Assembly: GCF_003231495.1 (NCBI RefSeq)
Contig: NZ_PQWO01000028.1
Span: 1 to 32,000, forward strand
From: Acaryochloris thomasi RCC1774
Lineage (GTDB): Bacteria; Cyanobacteriota; Cyanobacteriia; Thermosynechococcales; Thermosynechococcaceae
DNA: 32,000 nucleotides
Direction of reading: 5' to 3'
A program made the position numbers and the translations under genes. Within the stretch, counting starts at the first letter, position 1; the number at the start of each line of letters is the position of its first letter. Positions 11,952 to 28,283 of this stretch are shown here, piece by piece. A model generated the notes under the pieces. That model did no database searches. It was not told the DNA's origin and saw nothing but the letters and a program-made list of their open reading frames with translations.

Positions 11952-13052
11952 TTAGAGCTTATGAATGGGTTGCCCGGTCACGGCCCAGGCTGCAAGGGCT
12001 TCTCGACAGCGGCTTGGGTCAGGCTCGGCACAGAAGCTGCTGCAGTCCATTTCTTCAATCAACAGAAAGCTCGAAGGGTCGGGCAAGTTCAGCATCACCA
12101 CCGTATCCTCTGCATCCGTAGTGCCGGAGAGGCTATTGTAGATAATGTTCCGCAGCGTTTCTAAGTGAATCTCTCCAAGATGCTGACTGTAGAAGGCCAA
12201 CACGCTTTGGGCCTCCAGCGGCAGACTGGGTAACCATTCCTCAGAGGTCGAGGGAAACAACAGCAACAGGGTAATCTCGGCAGGCAGCAAGGCTTGAAGT
12301 TTACGAGAGGATTGATTCCCACAAAAAAGCCGATGGCGACGGCCCAACAGCCAGGTCTCACCTTTTTTGACCGTGGGCGGTTCAACGCTCACCAACGGCG
12401 CTGCAGGGGATGGCTTTTGATGTCTGTTCCTGGTTCTAGAAGAGAGGCTGCCGCCAATATTGCTGACATCGACGGTATAGGTTTTTCCGCCCCTTTGAGC
12501 GAGACGAGGTGAGGGTTCAGAAACATCAGGCGCAGCGGGCTCACCCTTTCGGCCCTGCCGTTCTTGGCGCAGCTGACCTACGAACGGATGGCTCACGTGA
12601 CAACGCGCGGCAATTTCGCGATCGCTCCACTGTCGCCACTCTGGGTCATCAAGCAGAGTTTCGACCACCCGCCGCTTATCGGCATTAGACCGCCGCAGAC
12701 CGTGGGTCGCGTTGGCCCCTGCACTATACAAAATGGCATCTCGCCGTGTACCGGCTTTCACTTCAGCCGCAATTTCCTTCCGCTCAGCCACTTCATGGGC
12801 TTTAACGCGATGAAAACCGTCGGCGAGCCAATAGCTCTCGCCATCGTAGAACAAAGTAACAGGCGGGAACTGCTCCCCCTCGTTTAGACTACGGCGATAG
12901 GTCTCTAGGGTTTCTGGGTCCAAACAGGCACGAGACTGAGTACCACCATCCCGACGAATGCTTTGAATACGGATCCAGTCAACCTGGACTGTAGAGACGT
13001 CGGTCCCTGCTTCTAGACGGCGCGACTTCGGATGGGATTGGATCGCAGACAT
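11952..13052 (-). CDS. ParB/Srx-like N-terminal domain protein fused to a degenerate, shortened DNA methyltransferase-like domain
   Basis: The ParB-N-like part reads IRIQSIRRDGGTQSR...PPVTLFYDGESYWLADGFHRVKAH. An HTH-like part reads WSDREIAARCHVSHPFVGQLR. The C-terminal part begins GETWLLGRRHRLFCGN (compare W-x-LG-x-HRL-x-CGD of ParB-methylase fusions). It has FPST where DPPY is expected and PDPSS where FGGSG is expected. It ends EPDPSRCREALAAWAVTGQP (compare E-x-DP-x-Y-x-x-x-x-x-RW-x-x-x-TG). The start is set at 13052 because a terminator lies inside the longer ORF. Confidence 0.65.
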   Translation of the reverse strand: MSAIQSHPKSRRLEAGTDVSTVQVDWIRIQSIRRDGGTQSRACLDPETLETYRRSLNEGEQFPPVTLFYDGESYWLADGFHRVKAHEVAERKEIAAEVKAGTRRDAILYSAGANATHGLRRSNADKRRVVETLLDDPEWRQWSDREIAARCHVSHPFVGQLRQERQGRKGEPAAPDVSEPSPRLAQRGGKTYTVDVSNIGGSLSSRTRNRHQKPSPAAPLVSVEPPTVKKGETWLLGRRHRLFCGNQSSRKLQALLPAEITLLLLFPSTSEEWLPSLPLEAQSVLAFYSQHLGEIHLETLRNIIYNSLSGTTDAEDTVVMLNLPDPSSFLLIEEMDCSSFCAEPDPSRCREALAAWAVTGQPIHKL

Positions 13053-13321
13053 GGACGCTCTTGGATAAGGCCAACCAAAAATGTAAAGAAATATATCTGG
13101 TAATCTTAACAGATACATTTCCTTGTATAGGCCAATGAGAGTCATTGAGTATACGAACCTGTTCTGCTGACCGTCTATAGAACAGTCAGTATAGGTAGGA
13201 CAGCCCTTAGGGATATTCTTCCCCTCCTTAGGTCTGGAGTCAGGATATCCGGCAATCGCTGCATGAGCAGAGACGCATCGACAGAAAACGGTTATCCAGT
13301 TTAGCCTTTGCAAAACGCACT

Positions 13322-13356
13322 CAAAAAAGGCTTCCACTTGTCTCAGTGGAAGCCTT
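13322..13356 (-). terminator. Rho-independent terminator downstream of the second cpcG paralog
   Basis: The minus-strand RNA reads GGCUUCCACU-GAGACA-AGUGGAAGCC. This is a perfect 10-bp stem, extendable by A-U pairs, followed by U6 (forward A6 at 13323-13328). Confidence 0.75.
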
Positions 13357-20456: not shown

Positions 20457-20499
20457 TTGAGGTCACACCCAGCGTTCAGAGCGCTGGGTGTGACCTCAA
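20457..20499. other. Orphan 18-bp perfect stem / 7-nt loop hairpin in the cpcC-hemH divergent intergenic region
   Basis: TTGAGGTCACACCCAGCG (20457-20474) is the exact reverse complement of CGCTGGGTGTGACCTCAA (20482-20499), with loop TTCAGAG. There is no flanking U/T tract on either strand and no upstream gene for it to terminate. Confidence 0.5.
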
Positions 20500-22866: not shown

Positions 22867-23478
22867 ATGACTCACAATACGGATATAGCGACGCTGGCAA
22901 GATGGATGGCGGGAGATTTTAGTAATCAAGAGCAGGCTTTTGAAAATCCGCCGTTCTTTGCCCACATTCGGGTTTGTATGCACCCCCTTGCGCTAGATGA
23001 TCTTGATGCGGGCGTTAGCTTCTATCTGGAGCAGGCCTATGATTATCAGCTCCAGCATCCCTATCGGACGCGGGTGTTGAGTCTGATGCCACAAGATGAC
23101 TGCATTATCATCCGAAACTATCGGTTGAATGATGCAGAAAAGTTTATAGGGGCGGCGCGGCAGCCGGAACGACTCGACTCCCTCGCTCCTGAGGATCTAG
23201 AGGTCATGGAGGGCTGCAACATGGTTGTCCAGTGGCAAGATGACCGATTCAAAGGAAGGGTGGAGCCGGGAAAGGCATGCCGGGTCGTACGCAAGGGCAT
23301 GACGACGTACCTCGATAGTACGTTCGAAATTGATGAAAAAAGGATGCGTAGCTTCGACTGCGGGAGAGATCCGGAAACGGACCAGAGAGCATGGGGTTCG
23401 GTGGCGGGGCCCTTCCAGTTCCAACTCACTCAAAGGTTCCACTTTGAAAATAAAAACAATATGGTGAACATTGTATAA
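22867..23478 (+). CDS. cpcT: Phycobiliprotein bilin lyase CpcT/CpeT (T-type)
   Basis: LARWMAGDFSNQEQAFENPPFFAHIRV...FYLEQAYDYQLQHPYRTRV...GCNMVV...GRVEPGKACRVVRKGMTTYLDSTFEI...RDPETDQRAWGSVAGPFQF matches the CpcT family pattern. Confidence 0.85.
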   Translation: MTHNTDIATLARWMAGDFSNQEQAFENPPFFAHIRVCMHPLALDDLDAGVSFYLEQAYDYQLQHPYRTRVLSLMPQDDCIIIRNYRLNDAEKFIGAARQPERLDSLAPEDLEVMEGCNMVVQWQDDRFKGRVEPGKACRVVRKGMTTYLDSTFEIDEKRMRSFDCGRDPETDQRAWGSVAGPFQFQLTQRFHFENKNNMVNIV

Positions 23479-23510
23479 TCAATATATACACAATAAATAT
23501 ACGCCATACT

Positions 23511-23882
23511 CTATCTATACAGGGACCACGCAATAAAACGCTCTACTGTGTATAGCGCTAGCTGGTTGCTCGCTCCGTTGAACACACTGTCAAACGAATG
23601 GCCCGCCCATGGTATCTCTATATACACCGATACGTTGCCAAGGCCCTTAAGACGACGGTGAAGATGACGGCCATAACGAGATTCCACTAGCTGATCCCGA
23701 CTCCCATAAAGCAGCAATGTTGGAGGAAGACCTTCTGCAACATACGTCAATGGAGAGGCTCGACGATATAAATCTGGACGCTCAGAGGGAAGGCTACCTA
23801 AAAAATCCTCGAGGACCGAGCGCGTATCTATCGGATCCGGATCCGGGGGACGATACAGGCTTTTAAGGGAGGTAGAGTAAAG
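23511..23882 (-). pseudogene. alpha/beta-hydrolase (esterase/lipase-like) remnant, C-terminal part only
   Basis: The open frame runs from an upstream in-frame TAG at 23883-23885. It reads ...DTRSVLEDFLGSLPSERPDLYRRASPLTYVAEGLPPTLLLYGSRDQLVESRYGRHLHRRL...IPWAGHSFD. This is the C-terminal Asp/His part of an alpha/beta hydrolase. There is no N-terminal oxyanion or GxSxG region and no plausible start. Confidence 0.6.
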
Positions 23883-23946
23883 CTAGACAACATTCAATGA
23901 GATACGTATAGTAAATGGAATTATATACAGCCTAAAGGCTCAAGAC

Positions 23947-25827
23947 GTGATATCCATGGACGCTATCGCCGCCAGAGAAACTATCATTGAACGTTACAGA
24001 CAAAGGATCTCGCTCGGCAAACACGTTCGACTCTACAAGCGTGAACTCGAAGAACTTATACATGGATTCATCAATACACTCGAAACTATACATGAACCCG
24101 AGAGAATTCAAGCTGCCTGCCAAAACGAAATTGAACTATTAGAAGAAGGCTATCCACGACCAACGCTTGCTAGTTCTTATATTCCTCGCTACCGAAAAGC
24201 AATTGCTGAAGCGATCGCAACCCAAAAACTCCCTTCCTCAAAGCATCGATACCTCCATCACCAACGTCTGACCGGTCTTCCTCAAGAGCGTGACGAACAC
24301 TGGGCCTTAACCTTCTTCAAGTATTCGCAGGAACAGTACGAACACCTTGACCACCGACAGGCAAAAACCAATCGCAAGCGCCTCCTGAATTTACAGAAGG
24401 TGAATCCTTGGCAGTATCTCGATACTCTCAATGAGCTGCTGCTGGCGACCGGGAAATTTGCGGCTCGGCATCGCACTATCGCCATTGTCGGGTTCACGGG
24501 TCGCCGCTTTGGAGAAGTGGTCGCTCGCGGTTCGTTTTCATTAACGTCCCATCCCTACTTACTGCGCTTTGAAGGTCAGCAAAAGAGTGAGCGCGACGGC
24601 TATGACATCATCACCCTCATTCCTGCTGAGATTATTCTCATGCACCTCGAACGCCTCCGAGAAATGCCGGAACTGAAGCCTTTGGCAGCCATGCAGGGTC
24701 AAGAGTTGAAGAAAGCGATTAACAAGTTTGACGTTCAGGTCAACCGTGAATGCGACAAGCTATTGATGAAACCTGGCGTCATGCCTCCTCTCGATGGTAA
24801 AGAGCATGTGACCATTCATAACCTGAGAAGTCTATGGGGGGCGATCGCAACCTTCCTATTCTGTCCACCGGAACAACACGAGTATGCCTTCTTGCAGCAT
24901 TATCTCGGACATATTTTGGAATCATCTGCCACAGGACACTACTTTCGATACATACTAGTTGACCGTCAAGGACAGCTCTTGCAGCAAAAAGGTGTCAAGC
25001 TCCAAGACATCCCCCCTCTGCCGTTGTTGGAGATCGAGAATGCCTCCGAAGAAGTAGATGAAGCAGGCTTTGATACGGTGGATCCGTCACTAGATCTATC
25101 GCCAGAACAGCAGCCTCAAGACAGAGAAGTAACCCTAACAGCGCCACGGCAGAGGAATAACGAAGAAATGAATACGGAAGAACTTCAGGCAACACTGCGG
25201 CAAGATTGGCTGCAGGAGATCGAGCAGGTCAAACAAGAATTGCGCTCAGATTGGTCAGAGCAATTAACGACATTTAAACAACAGATCGAGCAGCAAATGA
25301 CAACATTGCGGCGGCAGCTCCAGCCAGAAGCCGTACAGGAACTCACGCAGGAAATTGACACCCTAAAAACCGAGCTGGATCAGGCACAGCAAGAGAAGCA
25401 AGAAATCGCAGCACAGCTTGCAGACGCCCAAGCGAAACTCAACAGCTTTCGTCAACTATTGTTGGGCAACGAGGAAGTCAAAAAAGAAGTCGAAGAGCAG
25501 CCGACAGAACGCAAGACAAAGGAAAGCCCTACAACAACGACACAGCGGAGAAGGCGGGCACCCGGAAAAGCAGCTCAGAGAGCACAAATCATTTTCGATG
25601 CCATACGAGCATGGAATGATCAGCATCCAGATGACACCTTAGCCTTTAGCCCTGGACTTCTAGAGACAATCTTCAAAGTTCACCGCAAAGCCGCGAAGGA
25701 ATTCTGCCAAGAGTTTCAAAACGAAATTGAAGATCACCATGCTGAAATCGGTGTCGAAAGACTACTGACACACAACAAAGGCAAAGACATTGACGGATTT
25801 AAACTGTTTGCCGAGGCGTTCCAATAG
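23947..25827 (+). CDS. Protelomerase / telomere resolvase family protein (TelN/TelK/ResT-like catalytic core) with coiled-coil and extra C-terminal domain
   Basis: The motifs are colinear with my recollection of phage N15 TelN. IAIVGFTGRRFGEVV corresponds to AAVSGRRMIEIM. LLRFEGQQKSERDGYDIITLIPAE corresponds to VNFSGQAKKRSEDK..IYTLCEA. VTIHNLRSLWGAIATFLF corresponds to VYKDSRAIYARIAYEMFF. FLQHYLGHILESSATGHYFRY corresponds to FMEILGHDDENTQLHYKQF. The R-K-R-H-Y catalytic set is present. The likely ATG is at 23956; 23947 is a GTG. Residues from about 400-520 are Q/E-rich heptad-like sequence. Confidence 0.8.
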   Translation: MISMDAIAARETIIERYRQRISLGKHVRLYKRELEELIHGFINTLETIHEPERIQAACQNEIELLEEGYPRPTLASSYIPRYRKAIAEAIATQKLPSSKHRYLHHQRLTGLPQERDEHWALTFFKYSQEQYEHLDHRQAKTNRKRLLNLQKVNPWQYLDTLNELLLATGKFAARHRTIAIVGFTGRRFGEVVARGSFSLTSHPYLLRFEGQQKSERDGYDIITLIPAEIILMHLERLREMPELKPLAAMQGQELKKAINKFDVQVNRECDKLLMKPGVMPPLDGKEHVTIHNLRSLWGAIATFLFCPPEQHEYAFLQHYLGHILESSATGHYFRYILVDRQGQLLQQKGVKLQDIPPLPLLEIENASEEVDEAGFDTVDPSLDLSPEQQPQDREVTLTAPRQRNNEEMNTEELQATLRQDWLQEIEQVKQELRSDWSEQLTTFKQQIEQQMTTLRRQLQPEAVQELTQEIDTLKTELDQAQQEKQEIAAQLADAQAKLNSFRQLLLGNEEVKKEVEEQPTERKTKESPTTTTQRRRRAPGKAAQRAQIIFDAIRAWNDQHPDDTLAFSPGLLETIFKVHRKAAKEFCQEFQNEIEDHHAEIGVERLLTHNKGKDIDGFKLFAEAFQ

Positions 25828-25922
25828 CGATGCTCAAACAGAGGATACAGGGGGTTTTGCCGCGTCTAGTAAAGCCGTCTGAGTGCAAGAGGAAAAGAAC
25901 CGCGCCGTCAACATAGAGACCA

Positions 25923-28283
25923 TTACACCGCACAGTGAGCAATGGTTACGCCTGTGCCCCCCTCAGATTGTTCAGCGAACTCATAGCGTTCGACTCGGGG
26001 ATGCTGCTTCAAGTATGCCTGCACACCTGCACGCAACTTTCCGGTGCCGTGGCCGTGAATAATCCAGAGAGAGCCGTGGGCCTGTGCGATCGCATCATCT
26101 AAAACCCGCTCAGCATCAGCGACCCGTGATCCGCGAAGGTCCAGCGTATTTTCAGACGTCCGTACTGTCAACGGTTTGGGAGCCGGAGGTGCAGGGGCCG
26201 GCTTCGGCTTTGGCTCTACCTTCTCACCCGTCATTGATTCAATCTCGGTCACACTAACCGTCATTTTCATCAGACCAAAGCGTACCGTCACCTCATCTGC
26301 ATCTGGGGCTAGACCAATCACCTCCGCCTTTTGTCCAATACTGGGAATCCGCACGCGGTCGCCCATCTGTGGCTTAAAAGTCGGCACCTTTGCCTTTGCA
26401 ACAGGCTTCTGAGACGGGAGGCGCTGCTGCGTTACCTGCTCCAGTTTCTGAGTCGCCTCCTGCGCAGCCTGAGCCGTCATCGGTCCCTGCTGCAGTTGCC
26501 GAATAACCTTGGCAATCTCTTTGCGAGCAATCTTAATTTCATGCTGAATCGCTCGCTCCTGCTGCTGCCTCAGTTCTCGCTCTCGCGCTTTGAGTTCAGA
26601 AGCCTTGTCAGAAACCTTTTGATGGAGTTGCTCCGTACTTTGGAGCAAGCGTGCCGCTGCCTGCGCCTTGGTTTCCTGCTGTCGCCGCTGATCTTCAAGA
26701 CCAGCAATCACTTCGTTGACTTCCTGGGTACCCCCACCAATGGACTGCTGGGCCTGATCAAGAATGGACTCTCGAAATCCAAGACGTTTGGCAATGATCA
26801 GGGCGTTCGAGCGCCCTGGAATACCCCACAGCAAGCGATAGGTGGGCGAGAGGGTTTGGTCATTGAATTCAACCGAGGCATTTTCAAATCTTGGGTCTTG
26901 GTATTTAAGCGCTTTGAGTTCACCAAAGTGAGTTGTGGCAACCGTAAGCTGAGCGTGATCAGCCAGGTGCTGCAGAAGTGCGATCGCCAACGCACTTCCT
27001 TCTAATGGATCAGTCCCGGCCCCGACCTCATCCAGTAATACTAGAGAGCGATCCGTCAGACTTTCAATGATGGATTGAATCCGCCGAATATGACCTGAGA
27101 AAGTAGATAGGCTCTGCTGCAGAGATTGCTCATCGCCAATATCGGCCAGCACCTGATCGAACCACGGCAGCTCAACCGGTTCTTGAGCCGGGACGAACAA
27201 ACCCACCTTTGCCATTAGGAACGCCAGCCCTAGCGTCTTCAAGGTGACGGTTTTGCCGCCGGTATTGGGGCCGGTAATCGCGACAACCCTAATCTGGGGC
27301 GAGACCACCACGTTGATAGGCACAACAGGATCGCCTTGCTCATGATTCTGCTGCCAAACCAAAAGAGGATGGCGAAGCTGCCGCAGCGTTAAAGGTTCTT
27401 CTGAATCAACAAATCGAGGCTGGTTAGCCCCCAGCCAATAGCCATAGCGCGCCCGCGCTGCGGCCAGGTCTAACGTAGTTACAATCATGACCAGATGTTC
27501 AAGGTCAGCCTGGACCTCTGCGACCTTTTCCGTCAGACGCCGCCGAATGGCCTCTGATTCAGCCTCTGCTCTTCGCTTAAGTTGGCGCAGTTGATTATTG
27601 AGGTTGACCGTAGACTGTGGCTCGATATAGAGCGTCACCCCACTGGTGGACGTATCGTGAACAATACCAGGGATGGCATCTTTCTGAGGTGCCTTCACAG
27701 GCAGAACAAAGCGATCGCCCCGTTGTGTAACCAACTGTTCCTGAAGCGCCCCTGCCTTGCGCTGCAGCAAACTCTGCAGAACTTTCTGAATCTGAGCGTG
27801 GGTCTGACGCTGTTTGGCACGGATTCCGACCAACTTCTCACTAGCGCGGTCAGCAACATCTCCTCGATCATCAATACAGTGATGAATTTCCTGTTCTAGT
27901 TCCGGGTAAGTTCTCAGATCAGCCACCAGGCGATTGAGTGCAAGAAGCTCAGGCTGGCGATCAATCAGGCGTCGCAGCTGCCGGGTGCCAGCGAGGGTGG
28001 TCGCCAACTGCAGCAATTCTTCACCACTGAGAACGCCCTGCTTTTCGGAGCGCTCCAAAGCCGCTCGGATATCGTAGATGCCATTAAAGACCAGCGGCGT
28101 CAACAGCCGATTTTCTAAGTCATAGACCTCTCGGGTCTGATTGAGAAGCGTCTGACTCTCAGACAGTTGCCCCGGAATCTCCAATGCCTGTGCTGCGGCA
28201 ACCCCTAACTTTGTTGCAGCGAAAGTCGATAGGTGCTGGCACAGACGCGGCCATTCCAGCAAATCCAGAGTTTTGACAGGCAT
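25923..28283 (-). CDS. mutS2: Endonuclease MutS2 (MutS domain V ATPase + C-terminal Smr domain)
   Basis: The start is MPVKTLDLLEWPRLCQHLSTFA. The Walker A is ITGPNTGGKTV, followed by LLDEVGAGTDP and TTHFGELK. The C-terminal Smr part reads LDLRGSRVADAE...IIHGHGTGKLR. Confidence 0.9.
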   Translation of the reverse strand: MPVKTLDLLEWPRLCQHLSTFAATKLGVAAAQALEIPGQLSESQTLLNQTREVYDLENRLLTPLVFNGIYDIRAALERSEKQGVLSGEELLQLATTLAGTRQLRRLIDRQPELLALNRLVADLRTYPELEQEIHHCIDDRGDVADRASEKLVGIRAKQRQTHAQIQKVLQSLLQRKAGALQEQLVTQRGDRFVLPVKAPQKDAIPGIVHDTSTSGVTLYIEPQSTVNLNNQLRQLKRRAEAESEAIRRRLTEKVAEVQADLEHLVMIVTTLDLAAARARYGYWLGANQPRFVDSEEPLTLRQLRHPLLVWQQNHEQGDPVVPINVVVSPQIRVVAITGPNTGGKTVTLKTLGLAFLMAKVGLFVPAQEPVELPWFDQVLADIGDEQSLQQSLSTFSGHIRRIQSIIESLTDRSLVLLDEVGAGTDPLEGSALAIALLQHLADHAQLTVATTHFGELKALKYQDPRFENASVEFNDQTLSPTYRLLWGIPGRSNALIIAKRLGFRESILDQAQQSIGGGTQEVNEVIAGLEDQRRQQETKAQAAARLLQSTEQLHQKVSDKASELKARERELRQQQERAIQHEIKIARKEIAKVIRQLQQGPMTAQAAQEATQKLEQVTQQRLPSQKPVAKAKVPTFKPQMGDRVRIPSIGQKAEVIGLAPDADEVTVRFGLMKMTVSVTEIESMTGEKVEPKPKPAPAPPAPKPLTVRTSENTLDLRGSRVADAERVLDDAIAQAHGSLWIIHGHGTGKLRAGVQAYLKQHPRVERYEFAEQSEGGTGVTIAHCAV

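Follow-up and report, generated by a model that had tools for sequence, protein, structure and literature searches.

We analysed a 32,000-nucleotide stretch of the genome of the cyanobacterium Acaryochloris thomasi RCC1774 (contig NZ_PQWO01000028.1, positions 1 to 32,000), hereafter called the window. It contains a gene at 23947-25827 that an original prediction, made from the sequence alone, had identified as an intact gene for a protelomerase (telomere resolvase), embedded between cpcT and mutS2 and outside any phage context. Here, we describe the gene and its product, its inheritance, the search for a substrate, and the role that the enzyme is likely to play.

The gene and its product

The open reading frame (ORF) runs without interruption from 23947 to 25827 on the + strand and comprises 626 amino acids (aa) when counted from GTG. 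While the extent of the open frame was correctly given in the original prediction, a start at GTG 23947 is unlikely: this codon is GTA in a 94%-identical orthologue (L048) and is therefore not conserved, whereas ATG 23956 is kept in all four orthologues that can be aligned across the start. Because of this difference in conservation, the product is probably 623 aa long, which is also the length of the annotated orthologue P0001. The most likely true start, judged from the alignment, is thus ATG 23956, and the protelomerase coding sequence is placed at 23956-25827 (+, including the stop codon) on the basis of the ORF, start conservation, a match to Pfam PF16684 (E=8.2e-61) and a ratio of nonsynonymous to synonymous substitution rates (dN/dS) of 0.08-0.11. 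Residue numbers in the following text refer to the 626-aa frame, i.e., the maximal ORF from GTG 23947.

Upstream of the gene lies cpcT (PF06206, E=4e-69) and downstream, in convergent orientation, mutS2 (MutS_V and Smr domains), so that Pfam agrees with the predicted position in a core photosynthesis and repair neighbourhood. The five catalytic motifs quoted in the original prediction were all found, and in the order given, between residues 184 and 335: TGRRFGE (184-190), FEGQQKSER (208-216), IHNLRSLWGAIA (290-301), LGH (320-322) and TGHYFRY (329-335).

Family membership and active site

The tests on which the resolvase identity could have failed had all been set by the original prediction, namely a comparison with telomere-resolvase profiles, an alignment of the catalytic residues and a comparison with known structures, and the identity withstood each of them. 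In Pfam, residues 148-335 matched the entire PF16684 profile (ResT/TelK_cat; positions 1-181 of 181) at E=8.2e-61, with 205 bits against a cutoff of 27, and no integrase or tyrosine-recombinase family appeared in the scan of the product even at E up to 10. When the single protein was searched against PDB sequences with phmmer, only coiled-coil noise was obtained. Since the single sequence fell short of the solved structures, a family profile was required to reach TelA and TelK; it was built from an alignment of 23 homologues (A1) and matched TelA (4dwp) at E=1.7e-16 and TelK (2v6e) at E=3.9e-13.

The GRR, GQxK, HNLR, LGH and HYF blocks are in register with TelA R255, K286, Y363/R366, H394 and Y405, where the TelA numbering was fixed by the R255A mutant chain and by the list of active-site residues in the TelA paper. 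The corresponding residues, all encoded on the + strand, are R187 (24505-24507; TelA R255), K213 (24583-24585; K286), H291 (24817-24819; Y363), R294 (24826-24828; R366), H322 (24910-24912; H394) and the predicted nucleophile Y332 (24940-24942; Y405). R187, K213, R294, H322 and Y332 are invariant in 23 of 23 homologues, and H291 is invariant in the same alignment save in the N-terminally truncated P0022. A histidine at the position of TelA Tyr363 represents the tyrosine-recombinase state (TelA paper). In addition, Y102 aligns with TelA Y201, and the invariant R107 is one position off TelA R205; both TelA residues are essential for hairpin formation (TelA paper).

The predicted structure leads to the same family. 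The AlphaFold2 (AF2) model is confident for residues 1-360 and 540-626, and its only significant fold matches in PDB, obtained with Foldseek, were TelA (6e-11), TelK (2e-9) and ResT (2e-4), the next being XerH (0.014). The TelA equivalog model of NCBIfam (NF052462) scored 24.3 bits against a cutoff of 800 and over an N-terminal stretch only, which places the protein outside that narrower group. Based on these sequence and fold comparisons, the gene encodes a protelomerase of the ResT/TelK/TelA superfamily that belongs to a cyanobacteria-specific subfamily and has an intact active site. The protein is, by analogy, probably catalytically competent.

Domain architecture

The N-terminal helical domain (residues 1-147; 23947-24387, +) is a putative DNA-binding (core-binding) domain according to the TelA alignment and the AF2 model. 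Profile positions 36-123 align to TelA chain residues 154-240, and the N-terminal part of the NCBIfam TelA model is matched weakly as well. A confidently modelled beta-hairpin at residues 99-118 carries Y102 and R107. The N-terminal domain is followed by the catalytic domain defined by PF16684 (residues 148-335; 24388-24951, +), whose dN/dS is 0.04.

Beyond the core, a disordered acidic linker (residues 361-409; 25027-25173, +) has a predicted local distance difference test (pLDDT) score below 50 at 362-409; it evolves fast (dN/dS 0.3-0.5) and varies in length within the family. Next comes a pair of long helices in the AF2 model (residues 410-456 and 460-505; 25174-25461, +), rich in Q, L and E (21, 14 and 13 of 96 residues, respectively), with dN/dS of 0.06-0.09. 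This helix pair is a probable coiled coil, and its matches to coiled-coil families are weak only. A second disordered linker (residues 506-539; 25462-25563, +; pLDDT <50 at 507-538) ends in the basic patch QRRRRAPGK, at which an R/K-G-R-x-P-G-K motif is conserved across the family.

The C-terminal helical domain (residues 540-626; 25564-25824, +) is modelled as six helices with pLDDT 88, has dN/dS of 0.03-0.10 and is well conserved through the subfamily. Among 1.84 billion proteins, it was found in 81 cluster representatives, nearly all of which have it at the extreme C-terminus. Three of ten scanned shorter proteins with this domain contain part of the ResT/TelK catalytic domain, and the shorter carriers thus appear to include truncated protelomerases. 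The domain has no match in Pfam, PDB sequences, PDB folds or BFVD viral folds; the top fold matches, weak and with E above 3, are winged-helix DNA-binding domains. From its sequence distribution, we regard it as specific to the cyanobacterial protelomerase subfamily. The order of modules throughout this subfamily (alignments A1 and A3) is a core, a variable coiled-coil linker, a basic R-x-P-G-K patch and the C-terminal domain of about 85 aa, which has invariant W, N, P, E, F, R, H and HN-GK positions, and the window protein fits this pattern. By analogy, the basic patch and the C-terminal domain may bind DNA flanking the core site, and the helical region may serve as a dimerisation or end-bridging (telomere-bridging) module.

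The C-terminal extension announced by the original prediction is therefore present, but it comprises approximately 265-290 residues and not approximately 230. The accompanying claim that phage enzymes lack such an extension does not hold, as the crystallised TelK chain extends about 100 residues past the aligned core and TelK has a C-terminal 'stirrup' domain, in addition to a muzzle domain (TelA paper). What is distinctive here is which C-terminal module the protein has, not the fact of having one.

Genomic context and inheritance

According to Pfam, the window contains, in order, a broken IS630 transposase, a Ser/Thr kinase, a response regulator, CpcF, CpcE, CpcA, CpcB, three phycobilisome linkers (with a 461-aa ORF among them), a CpeS-like lyase, a methyltransferase, a CpcG-type linker, ferrochelatase, heme oxygenase, CpcT, the protelomerase, MutS2 (convergent), NdhD and a PAS-GGDEF-EAL protein. 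No phage, plasmid or Tn7-like genes (TnsB, TnsC, TniQ) were detected by Pfam anywhere in the 32 kb, and the sole transposase is the broken IS630 element, 21 kb from the protelomerase. As predicted, the context is non-phage, the neighbours being host pigment, repair and respiration genes.

The composition of the gene is host-like, with a GC content of 0.488 (0.496 at third codon positions) and a codon-usage distance of 0.115, inside the range of its neighbours (0.08-0.17). Two HIP1 octamers (GCGATCGC) lie exactly where they had been reported, at 24211-24218 and 24841-24848, and the window as a whole has 18 such sites against 0.62 expected.

Selection on the protein is strong. The dN/dS values are 0.096, 0.110 and 0.081 in comparison with the 94%, 84% and 73% identical orthologues, and fast evolution is confined to the two disordered linkers. 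In comparison with L049, the synonymous divergence (dS) of the protelomerase (0.74) is similar to that of the adjacent mutS2 (0.84), indicating that the two genes diverged together. The order protelomerase-mutS2-ndhD is kept in L004, and protelomerase-mutS2 in L049; in L004, the protelomerase is about 70% identical (catalytic domain 91%) and the neighbours are 92-93% identical. A linkage to phycocyanin genes is also observed elsewhere: in L009 and L012, the protelomerase and cpcBA are immediate neighbours in divergent orientation, in L013 a few kb separate the two, and in L005 a linker gene is nearby; in the window, the protelomerase stands at the edge of the corresponding phycobilisome cluster. 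Such repeated linkage to a single-copy locus would be hard to explain otherwise than by an old inherited chromosomal position. Other orthologues have unrelated but clearly chromosomal contexts. Host-like composition, HIP1 sites, low dN/dS, mutS2-like dS and conserved synteny agree with the long residence proposed in the original prediction and support, at the sequence level, the view that the gene is a long-term, vertically inherited chromosomal resident.

Internal chromosomal copies are common in the subfamily, an example being a copy approximately 1 Mb inside a 3-Mb contig. In Altericista sp. CCNU0014 (CP137338.1), whose 5.79-Mb chromosome was deposited as complete, two diverged genes (L008 and L028; 41% and 49% identity to the query) lie on opposite strands at approximately 2.37 and 2.43 Mb, about 60 kb apart, and the interval between them could be an integrated linear element.

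Distribution of the subfamily

At least 140 homologues are present in the protein database, and among the matches listed, nearly all the named ones are cyanobacterial and many are annotated as 'protelomerase family protein' or 'telomere resolvase'. The 94% identical orthologue of Cyanobacteria bacterium P01_A01_bin.17 is already designated "protelomerase family protein". Alignment-based patterns specific to the subfamily identified 42 loci (in approximately 35 genomes) among 185,579 species genomes; patterns taken from the single sequence, which lay in variable regions, matched nothing. Orthologues are present in the cultured strains Altericista sp. CCNU0014, Petrachloros mirabilis ULC683 and Lyngbya confervoides BDU141951. 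No subfamily relatives were found in IMG/VR viral contigs, and a phage database gave one marginal match, the protelomerase of Vibrio phage VP882 (30% identity over 22% of the query).

The rarity implied by the original prediction is not borne out, because the family is already annotated and surveyed, with biochemical validation of one member. All putative cyanobacterial protelomerases, which differ in domain architecture, have been placed in a tree (bioRxiv 10.1101/2024.11.13.623437). The window gene is thus a well-supported added member of an annotated and partly studied family; what is new here is its long vertical inheritance in a core phycobilisome neighbourhood and the delineation of a C-terminal module specific to the subfamily.

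Upstream block and telomere-like words

A sigma-70-like promoter (TAGACA-17-TATAGT; 23884-23912, +) is located in a conserved upstream block of approximately 110 nucleotides (nt), which is shared with L048, L049 and partly L004. It is the only sigma-70-like site found in 23400-26000, and the protelomerase appears to have its own predicted, promoter-like element. The word GAGATACGTATAGTAAATGGAATTATATACAG (23896-23927), kept in L048, L049 and L004, overlaps the predicted -10 box and resembles the word GTATACGTATATGTAA of TelT, a cyanobacterial protelomerase. Within it, ATACGTATAGTAA (23902-23914) overlaps the promoter-like site and resembles the validated TelT telomere half-site. The validated TelT telomere reads TATTAGTATACGTATATGTAATATAGAA|TTC... 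(oligonucleotide table, bioRxiv 10.1101/2024.11.13.623437).

The three best gapped matches to the TelT half-site in the window are at 29-62, 647-674 and 23902-23921, and the best gapped score is not significant (p ~0.10). The last match lies 35-55 nt upstream of the protelomerase ATG and overlaps the -10 box, and the first sits in an imperfect palindrome. The match at 647-674 is identical at 21 of 28 positions without gaps (p ~0.002 with shuffled queries) and has an inverted 10-mer partner at 693-702. Enrichment of the TelT-like word upstream of the gene is seen only in four closely related, non-independent orthologues that share the promoter; among the 30 loci that are more distant, the upstream word falls within the locus's own top 5% in 3, compared with 1.5 expected. 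The telomere-like word at the promoter could be an operator, a telomere fossil or an AT-rich coincidence. An autoregulatory operator at 23896-23927 is possible as judged from the sequence, and it is statistically unestablished.

The first 750 nt of the window, which hold the other two of these matches, the best two in the window, are AT-rich (GC 0.40), apparently non-coding and located beside the broken IS630 element. They include the palindrome at 29-62 with AGTATACGTTGTATGTACTAT, as well as TATTAATATACGT with its inverted partner (inverted 10-mers at 662-671 and 693-702). The half-site-like copies at 647-702 face outward and thus do not form a resolvable junction. This segment could be a miniature inverted-repeat transposable element or the end of an insertion sequence (IS), a fossil subtelomere, or a product of chance.

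Search for telomeres and target palindromes

A palindrome scan agreed with the original prediction that no large palindrome lies near the protelomerase gene. The cellular resolvases ResT and TelA act on telomeres far from their own genes. Since distant action of this kind is known and internal chromosomal copies are common in the subfamily, we do not regard the missing adjacent palindrome as counter-evidence.

A single palindrome in the window is above chance. Located at 20457-20499, it consists of two perfectly matching 18-bp arms separated by a 7-nt centre (TTGAGGTCACACCCAGCG TTCAGAG CGCTGGGTGTGACCTCAA) and occupies the intergenic region from which the CpcG-type linker gene and hemH diverge. 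It has no T-run after it, and none of the 50 loci examined contains it. Because of its asymmetric 7-nt centre and odd length of 43 bp, it is not a replicated hairpin junction; for these reasons, together with the intact divergent promoter region and its absence from the 50 loci, it was rejected as a target. It could function as an operator in regulation or form a hairpin in RNA.

Among relatives, a scan of the contig ends of all loci found short terminal palindromes in L044, L045 and L030 only. In Chroococcus sp. FPU101 (L044), positions 1-45 consist of 22+22 nt around a 1-nt centre exactly at the contig terminus, and the right end of L045 and the left end of L030 are perfect or near-perfect terminal palindromes; these contigs carry a protelomerase gene or fragment. 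Such palindromes may be the expected signature of hairpin read-through or an assembler artefact.

The last 13 kb of a 163-kb metagenome contig (L054) contain two protelomerase genes 10 kb apart at the contig end, together with Tn5/IS4-type transposases and toxin-antitoxin pairs (BrnT, HicAB), and L055, an independent assembly, extends only 29 nt beyond this point. The arrangement resembles a subtelomeric region. In Lyngbya confervoides BDU141951, protelomerase genes occur on contigs of 9.2 kb (L014) and 4.5 kb (L021), whose names indicate assembly coverages of 358x and 1308x; one of the two contigs is labelled a plasmid. Both may represent linear plasmids of small size and high copy number. 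No terminal inverted repeats were found on them.

The interval from cpcT to the protelomerase contains a 79-aa ORF (23511-23750, - strand) with no Pfam match, which resembles the C-terminal end of a longer gene that has decayed; the ORF sequence is partly present upstream of the L048 orthologue, with internal deletions. In the five closest orthologues (L048, L049, L050, L004 and L006), the contigs break 70-420 nt upstream of the protelomerase. These breaks were considered as telomeres and rejected, as L048 runs into the remnant gene of the window and the stubs are non-palindromic. They are likely caused by strain-variable sequence that breaks assemblies.

Comparison with known systems

Bacteria with hairpin telomeres include cyanobacteria (TelA structure paper). 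The closest biochemical reference is TelT of LoPAST, which in vitro resolves a 2x28-bp palindrome into hairpins and bridges ends, and whose C-terminal extension, according to a prediction, binds outer telomere DNA (bioRxiv 10.1101/2024.11.13.623437). The window protein resembles TelT, as described in that preprint, in being a cyanobacterial member of the same superfamily with a C-terminal extension beyond the core, and the TelT telomere word resembles words in the window. Cyanobacterial protelomerases are often found on telomeric transposons and are exchanged between them (bioRxiv 10.1101/2024.11.13.623437). TelT itself is carried on a one-ended Tn7-like telomeric transposon near a replicon end; in contrast, no Tns genes accompany the window gene in the 32 kb, and it lies in a conserved core neighbourhood. 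This sets it apart from the protelomerases of PAST elements (protelomerase-associated Tn7-like telomeric transposons), which have tnsB, tnsC and tniQ upstream and a replicon end nearby.

Among solved structures, TelA of Agrobacterium tumefaciens (PDB 4DWP/4E0G) is the best match by both profile (1.7e-16) and fold (6e-11). The N-terminal and catalytic domains of the two proteins can be aligned, and both enzymes are cellular and chromosomally encoded. However, the identity is only about 20%, TelA has Tyr363 where the window protein has His291, and TelA contains neither a coiled coil nor the C-terminal helical domain. TelK of phiKO2 (PDB 2V6E) and TelN of N15 have PF16684 and the catalytic residues in common with the window protein (TelK profile 3.9e-13, fold 2e-9), but the muzzle and stirrup of TelK are unmatched in it and the C-terminal modules differ. 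Phage protelomerase genes adjoin their own target palindrome in the linear plasmid-prophage. The window gene, with neither phage context nor adjacent palindrome, does not belong with the N15-like phage enzymes. Borrelia ResT (PDB 8VS5) shares the fold of the catalytic domain (E=1.9e-4, TMt 0.65) but is much smaller, approximately 12% identical and equipped with other accessory regions. This cellular enzyme works in trans, on numerous telomeres that lie far from where it is encoded.

Within the subfamily, WP_013335026.1 (P0096) of Gloeothece verrucosa PCC 7822 is approximately 50% identical to the window protein over the core, shares its C-terminal domain and likewise contains a coiled coil. 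It differs in its length of 830 aa, which includes an extra inserted region, and in its location among transposases and hypothetical genes on Cy782202, a 474-kb accessory element reported to be linear. Linear chromosomal elements have been reported in both Cyanothece 51142 and PCC 7822. Further relatives are found in Crocosphaera chwakensis CCY0110, the one partially sequenced genome reported to be syntenic with the linear chromosome of Cyanothece 51142.

Proposed role and alternative explanations

In our view, the protein is probably a functional resolvase whose substrates, processed in trans, are the hairpin telomeres of at least one linear replicon located beyond the window. By homology to TelA and TelK, a dimer would bind the palindromic junction that forms when replication traverses a hairpin telomere. 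Tyr332 of each subunit would then attack one strand, with the two cuts a few base pairs apart, giving 3'-phosphotyrosyl intermediates, and R187, K213, R294 and H322, together with H291 at the TelA Tyr363 position, would act to stabilise the transition state. Refolding of the overhangs may be assisted by the N-terminal domain with its Y102 and R107, after which each free 5'-OH would attack the opposite strand to produce two covalently closed hairpin ends. Stronger dimerisation, or a tethering of the two ends to each other, is the probable contribution of the coiled-coil region, and contacts with DNA beyond the core site are probably made by the basic patch and C-terminal helical domain. The existence and identity of the target, a linear replicon beyond the window, are inferred; candidates are a plasmid, a chromid and the chromosome itself.

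Several observations weigh against such a role. No plausible target palindrome or linear end was found in the 32-kb window. A search for hairpin read-through palindromes in 16 relative loci, most of which have the gene near a contig end, yielded one weak internal repeat, and the terminus of L054/L055 has no read-through palindrome. The deposited linear record of Gloeothece lacks terminal inverted repeats and its right end lies inside a transposase gene, so that the deposit alone is weak evidence of linearity and the published statement is used here. Furthermore, to our knowledge, no linear replicon has been documented in Acaryochloridaceae or Thermosynechococcaceae, the families of the closest relatives.

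It is unlikely that the enzyme has instead been domesticated for another breakage-rejoining or DNA-binding task on circular DNA, such as repair or recombination, resolution of palindromes or cruciforms, strand annealing, or regulation via telomere-like half-sites. The deep core-chromosome site beside pigment genes and mutS2, stable across cyanobacterial families, would suit such a task, although a vertically inherited core gene is also expected if the linear replicon is a stable part of the genome. Strong purifying selection with no substrate visible in the window, and a conserved coiled coil and C-terminal domain that have no counterpart in solved resolvases, also point towards domestication, whereas subfamily members with the same C-terminal module are found on replicons reported to be linear. 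The word ATACGTATA-GTAA overlaps the -10 box of the gene and is kept in close orthologues, as a regulatory role would suggest; however, the promoter motif is not enriched upstream of distant orthologues. In addition, all catalytic residues are retained, together with Tyr and Arg at or next to the positions of TelA Y201 and R205, and the patchy subfamily fits a replicon-linked function better than a housekeeping one. We favour the telomere reading over domestication because the resolvase active site is retained in full, Tyr and Arg are similar at the refolding positions, and the distribution is patchy. The original prediction was right to leave a choice between telomeres elsewhere and recruitment to another role, and the evidence now favours the former.

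Quite improbable is the idea that the gene is a selfish relic, a remnant of an integrated linear plasmid-prophage or PAST-like telomeric transposon that has stayed intact without a host function. Cyanobacterial protelomerases often ride telomeric transposons, the region upstream of the gene is unstable (the remnant at 23511-23750 and the contig breaks in the five closest orthologues), and a broken IS630 with an AT-rich segment containing TelT-telomere-like words occupies 1-2708. Nevertheless, neutral decay cannot be reconciled with dN/dS of ~0.1 (catalytic domain 0.04), dS matches that of mutS2, the location is conserved in several genera and families, and the composition and HIP1 sites are those of the host. 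Moreover, the 32 kb contain no TnsB, TnsC, TniQ, phage or plasmid genes, and there was no match in IMG/VR and only a marginal one in the phage database. That an ordinary Xer- or phage-integrase-like tyrosine recombinase has been misassigned is effectively refuted: some metagenome annotations do label homologues 'integrase', the catalytic fold is common to resolvases and tyrosine recombinases, and XerH is a weak fold match (E=0.014), but the best Pfam family is resolvase-specific (205 bits) with no integrase family at E up to 10, the TelA and TelK fold matches are 7 to 9 orders of magnitude better than that of XerH, and the N-terminal domain aligns to that of TelA.

A protelomerase gene is a near-diagnostic marker of hairpin-ended linear DNA, and a conserved core copy predicts linear replicons in these organisms that short-read assemblies have missed or mis-circularised; the organisms with orthologues are mostly known from fragmented metagenome bins. 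This is relevant to genome finishing, to plasmid biology and to tools such as closed linear DNA and chromosome linearisation. If no linear replicon exists, a telomere resolvase would have been put to another use, a far more interesting outcome, and interest would likewise rise sharply if the main chromosome is linear. A more specific and rather doubtful proposal is that the cpc-linked clade of the Acaryochloridaceae/Thermosynechococcaceae type has either a permanently linear, hairpin-ended chromosome or essential chromid, or a domesticated enzyme that binds half-sites. In the domesticated variant, the protein might bind or process the promoter word ATACGTATAGTAA (23902-23914) and the TATTAATATACGT / AAGTATAC words (29-62 and 647-702) in autoregulation or another DNA transaction.

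Other features of the window

An Rfam scan of the window returned nothing. The broken IS630 transposase is represented by an HTH_Tnp_IS630 domain at 936-1367 and a DDE_3 domain at 2139-2708, split by approximately 800 nt according to Pfam. The ORFs at 936-2708 recur near relatives, and a functional link between them and the protelomerase was considered; it was rejected, as they are this broken transposase. In L009, L024, L025 and L017, homologous IS copies are found no more than 10 kb from protelomerase genes, which probably reflects the abundance of these IS elements. Finally, the 461-aa ORF between the phycobilisome linker genes (11955-13337, - strand) has no Pfam match, and both its GC content and its codon usage are host-like.

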